From NCBI GenBank assembly GCA_963677485.1, contig OY781964.1, positions 3,840,001-3,904,000 of the forward strand: 64,000 bases of DNA, given 5' to 3'. The notes beneath the pieces are model-generated. The model saw only the letters and a program-made list of their open reading frames with translations. It made no database searches and had not been told where the DNA came from. Both the position numbers and the translations under genes were made by a program. This document shows, piece after piece, positions 30,539 through 39,063 of the stretch; the stretch's first letter is position 1, and every line of letters begins with the position of its first letter. This DNA is from Armatimonadota bacterium. GTDB taxonomy: Bacteria > Armatimonadota > HRBIN16.

Positions 30539-33214
30539 ATGTGCGACTCACCTAACATACCCAAAGTGTACGATCCCTCCGCCAGCGAGGCGAAGTGGTA
30601 TAAATACTGGAACGAAAGCGGTTGTTTCAAACCTCGACCCGCCCGCAACGGCAAAGGCAACTACTGCATCACCATCCCGCCGCCCAATGTCACCGGCTCA
30701 CTGCATATCGGCCATGCGCTGTGCTACACCATCCACGACGTGCTGCTGCGTTGGAAGCGGATGCAGGGCTACGAGGTGCTTTGCGTGCCGGGTACCGACC
30801 ATGCGGGCATCGCCACCCAGAACGTGGTGGAGAAGCAGCTCCGTGCGAAGGGCATCAGCCGCCACGACCTGGGCCGTGAGGCCTTCCAGGAAGAGATTTG
30901 GAAGTGGGTCGATGAGTCGGGCGGCACCATTTTGAACCAGTTCCGCCGGATGGGCTGCTCGTATGAGTGGGATCGCACCCGATTCACCATGGATGAAGGC
31001 TACGTGAAGGCGATCCAGCAGTGCTTCATCGACTGGTGGGAGAAGGGGCATATCTACCGCGGTAAGCGCATCACCAACTGGTGCCCTCGGTGCCTGACCG
31101 CCATCAGCGATATCGAAGTGGAGCATGTGGACGCCAAGGGCAAGCTGTATCACCTGCGGTATCCCTACGCTGACGGCAGCGGTAACGTGGTGGTGGCCAC
31201 CACCCGCCCCGAGACGATGCTGGGTGACACCGCCGTGGCGGCCAACCCGGAAGACGCGCGTTATCAGAGCCTGTTCGGTACGATGGTGAATCTGCCATTG
31301 ACTGGCCGGCAGATACCCATCATCGCGGATGAACACGCCCGGGCGGAGTTCGGCACCGGTGCGGTGAAGATCACCCCGGCTCATGACCCCAACGACTTTG
31401 AGGTGGGTCTACGACACCATCTGCAGCAGATTGTGGTGATCGACCAGCACGGCAATATGTCTCCGGAGGCAGGCGAGGCCTACGCTGGCTTGAGCCGTGA
31501 AGAGGCGCGCAAGAAAATTCTGGTGGACCTGGAAGAGCTTGGTCTGCTTGACCACGAAGAGGACTACACCGTGCCGCAGGGCACCTGCGCACGCTGCCAC
31601 ACCGTGATTGAGCCCAGTATCACCGAGCAATGGTATGTGCGCATGAAGGAGCTGGCCCAGCCCGCCATCGATGTGGTGAAGGAAGGCAAGGTTCGGTTCA
31701 TCCCCGACCGCTTCAACCGGCTCTACCTGGAGTGGATGGAGAACATCCGCGACTGGTGCGTCAGCCGTCAGCTATGGTGGGGTCACCGCATTCCGGTCTG
31801 GTATACGGAGGATGGCGAGGCCTTTGCCGCCATCACCGAAGAGGAAGCACTCGTGAAGTCGGGCGGCCGCGCTGTGACCCAAGACAACGACGTGCTAGAT
31901 ACCTGGTTCTCATCTGGACTGTGGCCGCAGGCTGTTCTCGGCTGGCCTGAACCCACGGAGGATTTGAGGAAGTTCTATCCGACCTCAGTGCTCATCACCG
32001 CGCGGGACATCATCTATCTGTGGGTGGCACGCATGATCATGAGCGGCATGCACTTCATGAATGAGGTGCCCTTCAACGATGTGTATATCTACGCCACAGT
32101 GCTGGACGAAAAGGGCCGACGTATGAGCAAGTCGCTGGGCACCGGTGTTGACCCGCTGGAGTTGGTGGATACCTACGGCGCCGATGCGCTGCGGTATGCG
32201 CTGCTGTCGCGGACGGCCACCGGCCAGGACTTGAAATTCGCCGCGGTGCAGAAAGGCCGTCACAGTCAGACCGAAGAGGCACGGAACTTCTGCAATAAGA
32301 TATGGAACGCCAGCCGCTTCGTGATGATGAACCTTGACGATGAGTTCCTGGCCGTATACAACGGTCAGCTTCCCGCCGTGGAGCAGCGTGATGTTTTGGA
32401 CCGCTGGATACTCAGCCGTCTGAACCAGACCGCAAAGACCGTGAACGAGGCTCTCGAAGGCTACAATATGGATGACGCCGCGCGGGCCATCTACAGCTTC
32501 TTCTGGGATGACTACTGCGACTGGTACATCGAGATGTCCAAACCGCGGTTCAATGGCGATGATCTGGCTCAGAAGCGCACGGTTCAGACGGTGCTGGTGT
32601 ATGTGCTGGACCAGGTGCTGCGGCTGCTGCACCCGTTCATGCCGTTTGTGACGGAGGAGATATGGCAGGCGATCCCACATGTGGGCGAGACCATCATGTA
32701 CTCCGACTACCCTGAGTTTGATGCAGATATGGACTCCGCGGATGCTGAAGCCAAGGTGGGGCAAGCCATCGAGTTCGTGCGCACCATCCGTTCGCTTCGC
32801 AGCGAGATCGGGCTGGATATCTCCAGTAAGGCCCCGGTATACGCTGTGGCCAACGGGCCAGAACATGCGGCCATGCTGGCAGAGATGCTGCCGGTGCTGA
32901 ACCCGCTGCAGCGTGTGCAGCCTGTGAGCTTAGTGCCCGAGCTGCCGTCTGACATCAAGCCCATCATGGATAGCTGCCGGTTGGCTGACATCTACATGGA
33001 CCTGGGGCAGTTCGACGTCAGTAAAGAGATCGCCCGTCTGCAAAAAGAACAGGCGAATATCGAGAACGAATTGACCAAGCTACTGGCCAGGTTGAACAAC
33101 CCCAGCTTTGTAGAACGGGCACCAGCCGAGGTTGTCCAAAAAGAGCGCGAAAACGCCACAGAGCTGCAGGCACGTATTGCCAAGCTTGCCGGGCGCGTCA
33201 CGCAGTTAGCATAG
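30539..33214 (+). CDS. valS: Valine--tRNA ligase
   Basis: PPPNVTGSLHIGHA, GTDHAGIATQ, ATTRPET, SRQLWWGH and RMSKS motifs, with C-terminal coiled coil. Confidence 0.98.
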   Translation: MCDSPNIPKVYDPSASEAKWYKYWNESGCFKPRPARNGKGNYCITIPPPNVTGSLHIGHALCYTIHDVLLRWKRMQGYEVLCVPGTDHAGIATQNVVEKQLRAKGISRHDLGREAFQEEIWKWVDESGGTILNQFRRMGCSYEWDRTRFTMDEGYVKAIQQCFIDWWEKGHIYRGKRITNWCPRCLTAISDIEVEHVDAKGKLYHLRYPYADGSGNVVVATTRPETMLGDTAVAANPEDARYQSLFGTMVNLPLTGRQIPIIADEHARAEFGTGAVKITPAHDPNDFEVGLRHHLQQIVVIDQHGNMSPEAGEAYAGLSREEARKKILVDLEELGLLDHEEDYTVPQGTCARCHTVIEPSITEQWYVRMKELAQPAIDVVKEGKVRFIPDRFNRLYLEWMENIRDWCVSRQLWWGHRIPVWYTEDGEAFAAITEEEALVKSGGRAVTQDNDVLDTWFSSGLWPQAVLGWPEPTEDLRKFYPTSVLITARDIIYLWVARMIMSGMHFMNEVPFNDVYIYATVLDEKGRRMSKSLGTGVDPLELVDTYGADALRYALLSRTATGQDLKFAAVQKGRHSQTEEARNFCNKIWNASRFVMMNLDDEFLAVYNGQLPAVEQRDVLDRWILSRLNQTAKTVNEALEGYNMDDAARAIYSFFWDDYCDWYIEMSKPRFNGDDLAQKRTVQTVLVYVLDQVLRLLHPFMPFVTEEIWQAIPHVGETIMYSDYPEFDADMDSADAEAKVGQAIEFVRTIRSLRSEIGLDISSKAPVYAVANGPEHAAMLAEMLPVLNPLQRVQPVSLVPELPSDIKPIMDSCRLADIYMDLGQFDVSKEIARLQKEQANIENELTKLLARLNNPSFVERAPAEVVQKERENATELQARIAKLAGRVTQLA

Positions 33215-33215
33215 G

Positions 33216-34091
33216 GTGATCAGTATGGGAGTCACAACCCGCCTCTCAGTCACCGCATTGATAGCCAGTTACCTGCCCTCCTTACGGGGGGCAGAGCGCA
33301 CCGTGGCCGAATTTATCCTGAAGTCGCCAGCGGCCGTGAAAGGTGTCTCCATCACCCACCTCGGCTCGCTGTGCGGGGTCAGCCAGACCACGGTCAACCG
33401 GCTTTGCTGCACGCTTGGCTTCACCGGATACGCCGAGTTCAAGCTGAAGCTGGTTGAGGAGCTGGCACCTGACACCGCCGATGGCAGCCATCGAGGCGAA
33501 ATCGACCCTGAGGACAGCAGCACTGAATTGATCAACAAGGTGATCTCAATTGACATCGCCGCACTACAGTCTGTTGCTGATCTGCTGGACATCGACGCGT
33601 TCGACCGGGCTGTGGAGGCGCTGTTTCATGCCAATACGGTGGAGGTGGTCGGCGTCGGCAGCTCCCTGCCGGTCGCGATGGACCTTTACTATCGCTTTCT
33701 ACGCACGGGCTTGAACAGCCGGTTCTCGGTAGACAGCCATATGCAGACCATCAACGCCGCACTGCTGCAGCCGAAAGATGTGCTCATTGCGGTGAGCTAC
33801 AGCGGCACCAGCCGCGAGACCATCCAAAGCACCGCCCAGGCCAAACGGGCTGGTGCCACCACCATCTGCATCACCAACTTCGCGCGCACGCCCTTGTCTG
33901 AAATGTGCGATGTGGTGCTGATGACCCCTGCGAAGAAGATGCAGTTCATCCACGAGGCGATCACTGGCCGGTTGACGCAATACGCCCTGGCTGATGCGCT
34001 TTGCGTGGCGGTGGGGCGCCGGCGCGGCAAATCCGTGCGCGCCCGGCAGAACATCATCGACATGGCCGTCCAAGCCCGCAAGGGCGAGTAG
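33216..34091 (+). CDS. MurR/RpiR family transcriptional regulator
   Basis: N-terminal HTH (VSQTTVNRLC..LGFTGYAEFK) and SIS domain (GVGSS, SYSG). Confidence 0.92.
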   Translation: MISMGVTTRLSVTALIASYLPSLRGAERTVAEFILKSPAAVKGVSITHLGSLCGVSQTTVNRLCCTLGFTGYAEFKLKLVEELAPDTADGSHRGEIDPEDSSTELINKVISIDIAALQSVADLLDIDAFDRAVEALFHANTVEVVGVGSSLPVAMDLYYRFLRTGLNSRFSVDSHMQTINAALLQPKDVLIAVSYSGTSRETIQSTAQAKRAGATTICITNFARTPLSEMCDVVLMTPAKKMQFIHEAITGRLTQYALADALCVAVGRRRGKSVRARQNIIDMAVQARKGE

Positions 34092-34123
34092 GGTTTCAAT
34101 TCTGTCACGCGACACCACAGGTG

Positions 34124-34272
34124 ACGACGCGAAGACGCGAAGGGTATGACAGGTTCGGTTTACCAGATCACCCGGGGTGGGAGTAACTATCTGTGTTGTC
34201 CTACTCGTCTTACTCGTCTTACTCGTCGTACCGGTCCTAGTTGAACCACGAATGCACACGAATGCACACGAA
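34124..34272. repeat. Short tandem repeat cluster
   Basis: GACGCGAA x2, TACTCGTCT x3 (34202-34228) and CACGAATGCA(CA) x3 (34247-34272). Confidence 0.65.
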
Positions 34273-34305
34273 GGGGAGTGGCTGGGACGGTGTGTCGTTT
34301 GGCCG

Positions 34306-34340
34306 CCGCGACATCAATGTCTCGGCTATTGACCAGCAAG
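34306..34340 (+). repeat. Left half of the REP-like unit interrupted by IS110
   Basis: CCGCGACATCAATGTCTCGGCTATTGACCAGCAAG matches the 5' part of the intact units at 14761 and 22452 (minus strand). Confidence 0.8.
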
Positions 34341-34399
34341 CATCCGCCCGTGCCTACCCGGCAGCCCATACTGTAACTGATGCGTTTCAGGTACATTTA

Positions 34400-34590
34400 T
34401 AGCACACATCTCTTGACAGCATCCCCGGACAGTCTTTGGTGCATCATAGCCCGTTAGCAAGCATGGGGCGGAAAGGTGGCTGATCAGCCAGATGGTGTAG
34501 TACTCGGTGGCGAACCCGAGTGAACCCGATTACAAGATTTCCCGCATATGCCTTTCCGGCTCGAGATGTGTTCATATTTCTAAGTGTGAG
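34400..34590 (+). ncRNA. Candidate IS110 bridge RNA
   Basis: Structured 260-bp left end: CGGAAAGG/CCTTTCCG stem, ACTCGG/CCGAGT hairpin and TGGCTGATCAGCCA palindrome. Contains short matches to donor (TTACAAG, ATGC) and target (AGCAAG, CAGTCTT). Boundaries approximate. Confidence 0.55.
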
Positions 34591-34599
34591 GATCAAACA

Positions 34600-36039
34600 A
34601 TGGCACAGCACTCTCGAAAAGACAACGCATCTGTAGAGGCCCAGCCTCCTTCCCACTCCCTGCCGTCGCGCCGCGTACCGGCACCTCGGTTCGTAGCTCA
34701 TTACCCGAAAGAGGATCTCCAGGTGATCCACCGCAATGCAGCGGGCATTGACCTTGCAGGGCGCGGCGCTCACTTCATCGCTCTGGAGATCAGTGAAACA
34801 GAGCTTGAGGTCATAGAGGTGGGGGGAATGACCCCGGATCTGACGGTGTGGGTTGAGTATCTGAAATCGCATGCCGTAACTACGGTGGCGATGGAGGCGA
34901 CCGGTGTCTACTGGATTCCGGTGTTCGATGCTCTGGAGAAGGCCGGCATCGAAGTATTTCTGGTGAACCCAAGCCATGCTAAGAATGTTCCTGGACGCCC
35001 GAAAGATGACAAGTTAGACGCACGTTGGTTACAGAAACTGCATAAATTCGGCTTGCTTGCGGCCTCGTTTCGCCCGAGCGATGACATTCGCCCATTGCAA
35101 GAATTCTGGCACCAACGAATTAAACAAGTGGAATTCTGCGGTGATGCGGTCCGTCGCCAGCAGAGGGCTCTGGATATGATGAATCTACGCCCTCACCAGG
35201 TAATAAGCGACCTGGATGGAGTGACTGGTCAGCGTATCGTGGATGCGATCGTGGATGGAGAGCGTGATCCAGTCAAACTGGCGTCATATCGCGATCATCG
35301 ATGTCACTGCACCGATGAAGAGCTTTATGCGGCTTTGACAGGGTATTACCAACCCCACCTGGTGTTCGCTCTCAAGATAGCCCGAAACGACCATCTTTTC
35401 CATCAGGCTCAAATCGCTCAGATCGATGCTCAGATATTACAGCATCTTACTGCGATCATGCCTGAGGAGGTGGATGAGATCACAGAAGCTGTCAGCTTGG
35501 AAACCCACCCAGTCAACCAAGGAAAACATCCACCGCCATTTAATGCTGGTGCGATGGTGACACTGTTTCTGGGTGTAGACCCAACCCAGCTACCAGGAAT
35601 CGGCGGTCTCACAGCTCTGGGCCTTCTGTCTGTGTTAGGCTACGACATGGATAAGTGGAAAACGGATCGACATTTCGGGTCATACCTTGGTCTTGCGCCG
35701 GTTCAAAAGATCAGCGGAGGTAAACGGCTATCGAGCCGTACCCGGCCTGGCATACATCCTGCGGCCGTTCTGTTTCTACAGTCGGCCGTTGCGACTATAC
35801 GTTCTGATAATGCTTACGGTGCTTTCTATAGACGCTTAGCGGCTCGCATTAGCAAACCCAAATCTCTCTATGCCACGGCATACAAAATTGCCAGGATGTA
35901 TTACCATCTGCTCAAAGACGGCCAGCAATACGTTGATCTTGGGGTTCAGGATTACGAAGCGAGGTATCATGCTCATCAAGTCGCTGCCATGAGAAAGAGG
36001 GCCAAGAAGTTAGGTTTCGATCTGATCGAAGCCGTCTGA
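34600..36039 (+). CDS. IS110 family transposase/recombinase
   Basis: DEDD RuvC-like motifs GIDLA, AMEATGVYW and KDDKLDA. Tnp_20 domain LPGIG...SYLGLAP...SGGK. Confidence 0.95.
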   Translation: MAQHSRKDNASVEAQPPSHSLPSRRVPAPRFVAHYPKEDLQVIHRNAAGIDLAGRGAHFIALEISETELEVIEVGGMTPDLTVWVEYLKSHAVTTVAMEATGVYWIPVFDALEKAGIEVFLVNPSHAKNVPGRPKDDKLDARWLQKLHKFGLLAASFRPSDDIRPLQEFWHQRIKQVEFCGDAVRRQQRALDMMNLRPHQVISDLDGVTGQRIVDAIVDGERDPVKLASYRDHRCHCTDEELYAALTGYYQPHLVFALKIARNDHLFHQAQIAQIDAQILQHLTAIMPEEVDEITEAVSLETHPVNQGKHPPPFNAGAMVTLFLGVDPTQLPGIGGLTALGLLSVLGYDMDKWKTDRHFGSYLGLAPVQKISGGKRLSSRTRPGIHPAAVLFLQSAVATIRSDNAYGAFYRRLAARISKPKSLYATAYKIARMYYHLLKDGQQYVDLGVQDYEARYHAHQVAAMRKRAKKLGFDLIEAV

Positions 36040-36155
36040 CCTTATGATTTTCGATGCTTTTAAGCACAATTTCATCGGAGAAGTGCATAGGCAGCTCCGA
36101 CAGGCATTCTATACCCAATAGGTGGTATGATAGCCGTATAAAAGTTACTTACAAG

Positions 36156-36178
36156 ACTGCTGAAGCAGTCTGCGGAGC
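36156..36178 (+). repeat. Right half of the REP-like unit interrupted by IS110
   Basis: ACTGCTGAAGCAGTCTGCGGAGC matches the second hairpin of intact units (AAGACTTCTGAAGCAGTCT at 14793, and CTGCGGAGC tail at 14841-14849 minus). Confidence 0.8.
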
Positions 36179-36195
36179 CGCGCTCTGGCGCCTTG

Positions 36196-36262
36196 TTGCC
36201 AATGTCCGGGGCGGTCTGGCGGATGGTTAGCGGATTCGGAAGGCTCAAGACCGCGCTGGTCT
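36196..36262. repeat. 67-bp stem-loop repeat, copy 1
   Basis: 58 of 67 positions identical to 38997-39063 by manual alignment. Confidence 0.75.
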
Positions 36263-36266
36263 AGGT

Positions 36267-36290
36267 GTAGGGGCGATTCGCGAATCGCCC
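36267..36290. repeat. GTAG-family REP
   Basis: GTAGGGGCGATTCGCGAATCGCCC. Confidence 0.7.
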
Positions 36291-36465
36291 GCCCCCTGCA
36301 GCGAGTTTACTCACCCCACAGTACTGGCGTCCCTAAGGGATCCCCTCACCACTCGTCTGATGGGTCGCCACCCGTAACCGGGCGCAGAGGAGGGTGCGGG
36401 ATTTAGGCTTCGGAGCCTAACTGAAACGAATATCAAAAGTAACTCCAAATATCCCCCAAAACCCC

Positions 36466-36494
36466 TTGACATATGAGTTCTGAAAGCGTAAGGT
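36466..36494 (+). promoter_or_regulatory. Candidate sigma70 promoter
   Basis: TTGACA-N17-TAAGGT upstream of the DUF1573 gene. Confidence 0.4.
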
Positions 36495-36551
36495 CAAATT
36501 AGTCTGGATAAAAACGGATGCAACAAATCGGACAACTACAGCAAAGGGTAT

Positions 36552-36878
36552 ATGATAATAGTGATAATGGCTAATAGATTATTCTTGGCCACCGGATTAG
36601 TGTTTGGCATGAATAGCTTTCTCTCCGCCGCCCCCAGCGTGCAGGTGACAACCACCAGCGTAGACCTGGGCAAGTTTTACGCCCAGACCAAGCAAAAAGC
36701 AAGCCTTGTATTTAAAAACACCGGTGACCAGCCGCTAAAGCTGGAGCAGGTGACTTCGGGATGTGCGGCCTGCATCACGGTTGTTCTGCCAAAGCAGGAC
36801 ATCCGGCCAGGCGGTAAAGCGACTGTGTCGGTTGGTATAGAGCCGACAGACGACTTCCGGAACACGGGGGTAATATAG
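36552..36878 (+). CDS. DUF1573 domain secreted protein (short, possibly truncated)
   Basis: Signal peptide followed by DLG...FKNTGDQPLKL..V.SGCAACI...I.PG. Confidence 0.75.
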   Translation: MIIVIMANRLFLATGLVFGMNSFLSAAPSVQVTTTSVDLGKFYAQTKQKASLVFKNTGDQPLKLEQVTSGCAACITVVLPKQDIRPGGKATVSVGIEPTDDFRNTGVI

Positions 36879-37499
36879 ATGACAGACCGAATGAAGTTGT
36901 TGGTTGTGGCTGTTGTAGCCACTATGGGGGGGTATATTGGGGCTAGGATAGGTATCAAGGTGGCAATGAGGAATATAACCGAGGTTAAGACAAAACGGCT
37001 CATTATTGTTGACAAAGAAGGCAAGGAACGAGGACGATTTACCGTTAACTTGGATCGACCAAATATACAATTGAAAGACAAGGATGGCAAAATGAGAGGG
37101 CTATTTGCCTTAACTCACGAGGGACCTTTTCTTTCGTTTTTTGATCGTAAAGGCCGTGCGCGAGGGGAATTCGGATTACAAGGTCCTTTTTCATCATTAG
37201 TTTTATATGACGAAAACGGCAAATTACGAGGAGAGTTCAACGCTGATAATGCGGGCTCTAAAATTGTGTTGCGTGACGCAGACGGTCTGTACCGAGGAGA
37301 GTTCAAGGCCTCTCCATTAGATTCCAGACTAACAGTGTTTGGCACAGATGGCAAAATGCGTGGTATGTTCAGCGGTGAACCAAATGGATCTGGAATAAGG
37401 ATATGGGATACAAAAGGGAATAGGATATGGTCATCACCAGATAATCACCTATCGCCAGTACCGGGATTCGAACCCGGAAGTTGGGGCCCGACCAAGTAA
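36879..37499 (+). CDS. Membrane-anchored protein with 22-aa beta-rich repeats
   Basis: N-terminal TM helix and six to seven repeats of L.D..GK.RG.F. Confidence 0.75.
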   Translation: MTDRMKLLVVAVVATMGGYIGARIGIKVAMRNITEVKTKRLIIVDKEGKERGRFTVNLDRPNIQLKDKDGKMRGLFALTHEGPFLSFFDRKGRARGEFGLQGPFSSLVLYDENGKLRGEFNADNAGSKIVLRDADGLYRGEFKASPLDSRLTVFGTDGKMRGMFSGEPNGSGIRIWDTKGNRIWSSPDNHLSPVPGFEPGSWGPTK

Positions 37500-37599
37500 A
37501 GGGACCATTGGCGACCACTGTATAATCCGACCGGTGACGCCCGCCGGATGTTCACCAGTCGGATTACACTACTGTACTAGTGCCTGAGATACATACCCC

Positions 37600-38852: not shown

Positions 38853-38996
38853 TTTTCCCTGAGCCCAAAAGCAACAAAACATGCAGTTTAACTCAGAAAT
38901 CAGAAATTGGAAAAGAAAGCATGGATGCCATGGAAACGATAATAACACAATCACCCAATTTATCTTTTGGCATATCGGTTCTGCTTGTTGTCTTGA

Positions 38997-39063
38997 TTGC
39001 CAATCTCCGGCGCGGTCTGGCGGGTGATTAGCGGTTGCGGAAAGCTCAAGAACGCGCCGGTCT
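38997..39063. repeat. 67-bp stem-loop repeat, copy 2
   Basis: CCGGCGCGGTCT...AGAACGCGCCGG stem. Matches 36196-36262. Confidence 0.75.

Follow-up and report, generated by a model that had tools for sequence, protein, structure and literature searches.

The locus described here prompts one to ask whether the non-coding DNA in front of a recombinase gene encodes an RNA that guides the recombinase, and how the guides of such an RNA would be arranged. Within the window (the whole 64,000-nucleotide stretch of DNA that was analysed) the original prediction placed a candidate bridge RNA at 34400–34590, with guide-like matches to both donor and target. From the evidence presented below, positions 34404–34571 (+) very probably encode the bridge RNA of an IS110-family element at 34341–36155.

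The insertion sequence is 1815 bp long (+ strand, the shared CAAG being counted once, on the right), its assignment resting on three copies, an empty-site joint and protein families, and its boundaries on three genomic copies, 73 empty target repeats and one empty-site contig. The genome of the window (G000) carries three full copies at 96–97% identity, and their alignment breaks exactly at the element start at 34341 (..CCAGCAAG|CATCCGCC) and at the element end at 36155 (..GTTACTTACAAG|ACTGCTG), with CAAG common to the two junctions as the same core in target and donor. A contig from the assembly of a public metatranscriptome library joins 34336 to 36152, skipping 1815 bases with four ambiguous letters, and represents the empty site. 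The junctions assumed in the original prediction are thus correct. There are 259 non-coding nucleotides at the left end (34341–34599), of which the terminal ~45 nt (34341–34385, CATCCGCC...) form the donor right side, and 116 at the right end (36040–36155), which terminates in the left donor and core (..GTTACTTACAAG). The window copy has the sole intact recombinase gene of the three, those of the other two (c2 and c3, at C1:137553-139426 and C1:1100510-1102379 of the same genome) each containing one in-frame TAA.

The target left half (34306–34340) is a REP-like repeat (..ATGTCTCGGCTATTGA..) that ends in the left target and core, AGCAAG at 34335–34340, and the right half is a hairpin, ACTGCTGAAGCAGTCT, at 36156–36175, as seen in the three-copy alignment and at empty sites. 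Eighty-six genomic copies of the left repeat half, ATGTCTCGGCYATTGA, are present; 73 are empty, 11 are followed by the element left end, and two are unclassified. The empty sites run straight into ..CAAG and the hairpin, 57 of them with CTGCTGAAGCAG and 16 with the variant CCCGCTAAACCGGG. The occupied repeats comprise the three full copies and eight miniature elements (~150–165 bp), all of which retain the left ~45 nt of the insertion sequence together with a REP-like palindrome (GTAGGGGCG..CGCCCCTAC) and occupy the same target repeat; in seven of them an RE-like end (..CAGTTACTTACAAG or variants) is present too, with a right-target-like hairpin after it. One miniature lies at G000 C1:3299283-3299478 (- strand) and seven elsewhere, none of them within the window. 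They resemble non-autonomous derivatives that could be moved in trans by the intact copy. The local genome picture is of a REP-like repeat family colonised by one intact element, two copies with stop codons and eight miniatures.

Other repeats are found around the insertion site. Directly upstream of the target repeat, window positions 34200–34275 contain two short tandem repeats with CTTACTCGT and CACGAATGCA units, and a second repeat family of ~68 nt adjoins the insertion site (36195–36262), recurring at 38992–39063 and in about 40 more genomic places at 79–90% identity; it is also arrayed with a period of ~380 bp at C1:1614464-1615796, alongside empty target sites. In the sister genome (G001), one element (L099, C1:5160805-5165241) has a left junction preceded by the element right end (..GCTAGTTACTTACAAG|CACCCGCC) and not by the usual left target, and this is the donor junction of a circle or tandem arrangement located in the chromosome.

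The recombinase gene (34600–36039, +) codes for a 479-aa protein with matches to DEDD_Tnp_IS110 (PF01548, 5.1e-17) and Transposase_20 (PF02371, 1.3e-12), and scores 192.5 bits against NF033542, 'IS110 family RNA-guided transposase' (cut-off 140). It is distantly related to the IS621 recombinase, two local stretches aligning (E 4.8e-11) that span the catalytic E, D, D and SG, and the motifs GIDLA, MEATG and DDKLDA and the serine motif G..P....SG were located by eye in the translation. The protein combines the N-terminal DEDD RuvC-like domain and the C-terminal Tnp domain with G..P....SG by which the IS110 family is defined. Matches in a plasmid search were all labelled 'IS110 family transposase'.

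The predicted RNA gene, at about 34404–34571 (+) in the 5′ non-coding end, is structured and conserved upstream of related recombinases. Its closing stem, P0, pairs ACACATCTC (34404–34412) with 34563–34571, as seen in a single-sequence fold and in compensatory changes (G..C in G001, and a 12-bp GCGTATCTCATG/CATGAGATACGC helix in the 71% relative L102). Inside P0, stem P1 (CCCCG at 34423–34427 with TGGGG at 34464–34468) forms the base of the putative target-binding loop, whose distal stem-loop (34437–34453) has the conserved form UGGUGC ... GCCCG. Stem P2 (CGGAAAGGTG at 34469–34478 with 34549–34558) forms the base of the putative donor-binding loop, which has its own distal stem-loop at 34493–34528 (UGGUG ... 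hairpin 34502–34521 ... CCCG). P2 contains the stem noted in the original prediction (CGGAAAGG at 34469–34476 with CCTTTCCG at 34551–34558), which is real and lengthens to 10 pairs, two of them G.U. Both loops are built alike, with a basal stem followed by ~10 nt of variable strand, then UGGUG(C), a hairpin, (G)CCCG and finally 8 nt ending in AG.

RNAalifold, applied to 52 sequences, recovers P1 and both distal stems, with 21 pairs in total and changes on both sides in 11 of these. Three of the five P1 pairs are changed on both sides (e.g. GC 22, AU 19, GU 7, CG 4), as are six of eight in the donor-loop distal stem (e.g. AU 30, GC 17), and pairs in the target-loop distal stem are either invariant or co-varying (e.g. 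CG 38, UA 10); in most relatives, not in the lineage of the window, a 3-bp helix closes the donor loop. P0 and P2 were missed by this alignment, and their co-variation was seen by inspection and by comparison with shuffled partners, the longest helix averaging 8.05 vs 6.24 for P0 and 7.91 vs 6.93 for P2; helices at the P2 position differ in sequence between relatives (e.g. TCCGATGT/ACGTCGGG and CCTTTGGAC/GTCCAAAGG). An Rfam scan of 33000–37500 with E up to 1 gave no family match, and the energies of single-sequence folds were no better than those of shuffles (z 0.02 and −0.17). Conservation and co-variation point to a structured non-coding RNA gene beside the recombinase gene. The target-loop motif is also found in Pseudomonas elements with 36% identity. 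It is present as well in an IS110-family element (43.6% identical) that is carried by enterobacterial plasmids, among them one of Citrobacter freundii (L184, NZ_CP098333.1, 71733-73073), with 60 other Citrobacter records; the L184 element seems to have entered a run of A's (..ATATTAAAAAA|).

Four G.U pairs are conserved in 51–52 of the 52 sequences and would be C.A mismatches if read on the other strand, which favours transcription of the + strand, and the target-loop motif is tied to the gene strand, on which it lies in 96 of 160 relatives' loci against two with the motif on the other. Although the RNA-library contigs carry no strand information, synthesis of the RNA from the opposite strand is extremely improbable. 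One such contig of 369 nt covers 34353–34721 in a G001-type variant, giving neither strand nor ends, and is weak evidence of expression since such libraries can contain DNA; metatranscriptome runs X4 and X6 cover parts of the recombinase gene, and the uncovered stretches count for nothing either way. A promoter and terminator scan gave no sigma-70-like promoter on the + strand and no terminator. TTGACA at 34414–34419 was considered as the −35 box of an RNA promoter and excluded, the 5′ guide lying only ~10 nt downstream. By eye, an extended −10-like site (TGgTATGAT, 36123–36131) is present in the right end and would read outward, and we speculate that once the element is a circle this site would face into the RNA gene. 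A comparable outward promoter reading into the RNA in the circle is reported for IS621 and ISPpu10 in the available text of PMC11208160 and of a preprint (10.64898/2026.03.19.712850).

The original prediction proposed four guide segments, CAGTCTT (34430–34436), AGCAAG (34456–34461), TTACAAG (34530–34536) and ATGC (34548–34551), and these, like the two strands of the stem, are all present at those positions. CAGTCTT, on the 5′ side of the target loop, is complementary to the core and right target (AAG|ACTG). On the 3′ side, TAGCAAG (34455–34461) has the same sense as the left target and core, with AGCAAG matching the flank, and the two nucleotides that follow it, CA at 34462–34463, are identical to the first two bases of the element left end and form a handshake-like extension.

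Between closely related copies the guides change together with their flanks. Position 34457 is G in the window copy, where the flank reads AGCAAG, and A in c2 and c3, where the flanks read AACAAG. Five matches to the recombinase protein are found in the sister genome G001, where the guide TCAACAAG is identical to the flank TCAACAAG; copies in this genome at 93% have GTCAACAAG in place of the window GTTAGCAAG, with a flank that reads ATCAACAAG, and CGGTCTT in place of CAGTCTT, complementary to AAGACCG. The right flanks there are AAG|ACCG in one copy (L101) and AAG|CCCG, with one mismatch, in two others. In L102 the corresponding comparison is AAAGATAG vs the flank GGAGATAG.

Beyond the genus, the closest relatives are 42–44% identical, and an nhmmer profile of the close non-coding regions located the homologous stretch in front of the gene in many of them. 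A motif-anchored pipeline yielded 64 loci with both junctions and skipped 105 loci, many of them on cut contigs. Removal of redundancy left 57 loci, in 13 of which the left junction rests on a guide match with two mismatches, for which we estimate a chance of about 50% in a 130-nt window. Complementarity of the target-loop 5′ strand to core and right flank, a test independent of the route by which junctions were found, is 4.51 of 8 vs 3.34 ± 0.13 in 2000 shuffles (maximum 3.93). An unbiased offset scan for this complementarity peaks at −9 from UGGUG, with z 7.6, a value to be read with the fact that shuffles ignore relatedness between loci, so that all such z values overstate independence. Right-target positions 1–4 are paired in 29, 28, 27 and 32 of the 57 loci (shuffle means 15–19, maxima 25–28); the core G is paired in 43, an invariant column and therefore uninformative, and the core A in just seven.

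On the 3′ strand of the target loop, bases 2–8 after CCCG are those of the left flank in 49–57 of 57 relatives, which is partly by construction. When the left-end motif is used to set the junction independently, agreement over the five variable bases is 3.87 of 5 in 15 distinct pairs, including three evident false or shifted motif hits that were kept in, compared with 1.84 ± 0.29 (maximum 3.33) in 5000 shuffles. The first base of the extension is that of the element left end in 51 of 57 loci (shuffle mean 28, maximum 38) and the second in 37 (mean 18.6, maximum 33); extension bases 3 and 4 give no signal against the left end in these loci, and the first two equal the right flank in only 11 and 13 of 57. 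The strands of the first loop co-vary with the insertion sites, in an order that is the reverse of that in IS621. The original prediction had already remarked that the right-target match lies 5′ of the left-target match, and this order (34430–34436 before 34455–34461) is correct and is identical across the family.

When a 191-nt stretch was simulated 200,000 times by a first-order Markov model, at the composition found in this non-coding end, TTACAAG occurred at a frequency of 0.008, AGCAAG at 0.050, CAGTCTT at 0.011, and all three together at 5e-6, and ATGC at 0.71, such that ATGC carries no weight alone. We weighed an explanation in which the matches are chance or relics of descent (for instance copied junction sequence) and the region is merely the promoter and leader of the recombinase gene. 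The segments are short (4–7 nt), ATGC is expected by chance and the fold energy does not exceed that of shuffles, but the joint frequency of the three longer matches is very low, the stems co-vary, and the guide positions vary among relatives and follow their own flanks, as was found when co-variation was followed across homologous elements. This explanation is already disfavoured, and we regard it as very unlikely. The proposal of a bridge RNA is borne out in that three guides, left-target, right-target and left-donor, co-vary with target flanks and element ends both in the genus and among the 57 non-redundant relatives; these comparative data confirm the three as real guides.

In the second loop the left-donor guide TTACAAG (+) is identical to the last seven bases of the element (36149–36155). 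The last seven of the eight bases after the donor-loop CCCG are those of the right terminus in all 57 relatives, partly by construction, the terminus having been located with this match; a conserved GTTTCTTAGGAG terminus and consistent element sizes support its placement. Both same-sense guides end in AG in 55–57 of the 57. When the left-donor guide is prolonged into the right target, no signal appears (18 and 17 of 57 vs shuffle means of 16.2 and 12.1).

The fourth proposed segment, the candidate right-donor guide ATGC (+), is not supported. Three of its four bases (T, G and C) lie within P2, there is an A.C mismatch at this position in G001 and a matching GTGC in L102, and no contiguous family-wide signal is found in the 57 loci. 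The donor-loop position homologous to the right-target guide gives one significant column (30 of 57 vs 15.9, maximum 27), and in the lineage of the window this position is occupied by a hairpin at 34478–34489. Two further candidates were tried and dropped. Windows of 4–6 nt relative to the P2 base give z ~5 at one offset, the source being a conserved CCGC of one subfamily, and L112 and L130, which have a changed left end, have no compensating change. GGGCGGA (34466–34472, across the P1/P2 junction) is complementary to left-end bases 3–9 (TCCGCCC, 34343–34349), with an estimated ~0.09 such matches expected by chance; a similar relation in the largest subfamily (GCGTGGCCCG vs CGGCCCACGC) is without compensating changes, and the complementarity is probably due to chance or shared descent. 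The lineage of the window may have a donor loop without a conventional right-donor guide.

These observations bear on an alternative in which the first half alone acts as a short, seekRNA-like target-seeking RNA, while recognition of the ends depends chiefly on the target halves beside them or on the protein and not on a true two-sided donor loop. The failed search for a right-donor guide and the hairpin in the donor-loop 5′ strand would both fit this, as would the finding of Siddiquee et al. 2024 that, in the available text of that study (PMC11187229), a short RNA with target matches is the predominant form and flanking target bases are needed for circle formation. Set against it are the agreement of the seven bases after the second CCCG with the right terminus in every one of the 57 relatives, the repetition in the second loop of the UGGUG..CCCG layout of the first, with stems that co-vary, and P0, which encloses both loops and co-varies and hence argues for a single RNA holding both. 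We consider the short-RNA alternative unlikely.

In the bridge RNA we favour, P0 would close a fold with two internal loops. One, the target loop, would read a REP-like repeat with ~86 genomic copies, and bases 34462–34463 agree with the left end of the element itself. The other would read the ends of the excised element where they are joined, and the 3′ strand of this loop (34530–34536) corresponds to the right terminus and core. Through this RNA the recombinase would align donor and target at their shared core (CAAG here, AG in the family), and the element would insert just 5′ of the target hairpin. The complementarity, the structure and the co-variation are direct observations, from which we infer transcription of the RNA, its binding by the protein, strand exchange, and which bases read the donor right side.

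In several respects this arrangement is like that of IS621, ISPpu10 and ISEc21 as set out in the available text of PMC11208160, PMC11208158, PMC11187229 and 10.64898/2026.03.19.712850, in which the RNA gene lies upstream of that for a DEDD/Tnp recombinase and shares its strand, and the target is a REP-like repeat beside a hairpin. The described IS621-type RNAs, too, have a pair of internal loops lying between a basal and a distal stem, with one loop for the target and the other for the joined ends, and in each of them one strand has the same sense as the left side and core and the other is complementary to the core and right side. The 2-nt extension resembles the IS621 handshake guide described in PMC11208158, and here matches non-cognate DNA adjoining the core. 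The differences concern order and polarity. In IS621 and ISEc21, as described, the left guide, of the same sense, comes 5′ and the right guide, which is complementary, 3′, whereas the window element has them reversed; the core on the gene strand is AG in this family (CAAG in the window element) and CT in the published IS621 and ISPpu10; and unlike IS621 as reported, the long, well-matched guide is the 3′ one and it is the same-sense guide that carries the extension. At 479 aa the protein is also longer than the 326–341 aa given for IS621-type systems.

Apart from guide lengths, these differences from IS621 as described vanish when the element is read on the opposite DNA strand. The 5′ strand then turns into a left guide of the same sense whose last base is the core C, the 3′ strand into a complementary right guide across CT, and the next two nucleotides pair with the donor beside the core, which is the place and length of the target-loop handshake guide in the available text on IS621 (PMC11208158). 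We infer that RNA and DNA meet in the same geometry as in IS621, with the genes turned round with respect to the crossover polarity.

The IS1111 seekRNAs described in the available text of PMC11187229 (ISEc11, ISPa11 and ISKpn4) are alike in having the segment complementary to the top strand 5′ of that complementary to the bottom strand. IS1111 elements differ as described there in having a long non-coding region downstream of the gene; in the window element it is upstream, and the long downstream region was not found (259 nt at the left end vs 116 nt at the right). The subterminal inverted repeats of IS1111 are given as 7–17 bp, and here a 6-bp pair was seen by eye (GTAACT at ~34374 and AGTTAC at 36143–36148, 33 and 7 nt from the ends); the transposases are given as 330–350 aa, compared with 479 aa.

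We take the RNA to be a true bridge RNA that varies the architecture of a known system. For IS110 and IS1111 elements, bridge and seek RNAs have been known since 2024, and a large survey reports, in its available text, many structural variants (10.64898/2026.10.21.760802). The large bridge RNA surveys (Durrant 2024; 10.64898/2026.10.21.760802) probably contain this clade, such that the present description refines a known system. In a literature search that covered running text, we found no passage on a left-end-encoded bridge RNA with this guide order or an AG core; Extended Data Fig. 10c of Durrant and Fig. S12 of the 2026 preprint may show one.

We put forward tentatively, as a possibility we would rate somewhat below even, a joint reading of these features. 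A widespread clade of left-end-encoded RNAs would keep the IS621 geometry on the other strand (same-sense guide 5′, complementary guide 3′ with a 2-nt handshake, and a CT core), while the genes for RNA and recombinase would run opposite to the polarity of the crossover site; in the lineage of the window the donor loop may do without a conventional right-donor guide, and the eight miniatures, which carry only the two ends, may be moved in trans by the single intact copy. If this is true, the evolution of IS110 elements would have separated the orientation of the genes from the polarity of the crossover, and first cutting would fall on the non-coding strand. Programmable recombination tools are being developed from bridge RNAs, whose mechanism has been studied almost entirely on IS621-like RNAs. 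The clade described here offers a natural family of RNAs in which the guide order is reversed relative to the genes, a case of natural retargeting in which one guide base and one flank base change together between copies of one genome, and a 3′ guide that is strongly matched and has its own 2-nt extension reaching into the donor. It would put directly to the test whether the enzyme fixes guide order, core polarity and handshake position or lets them vary.
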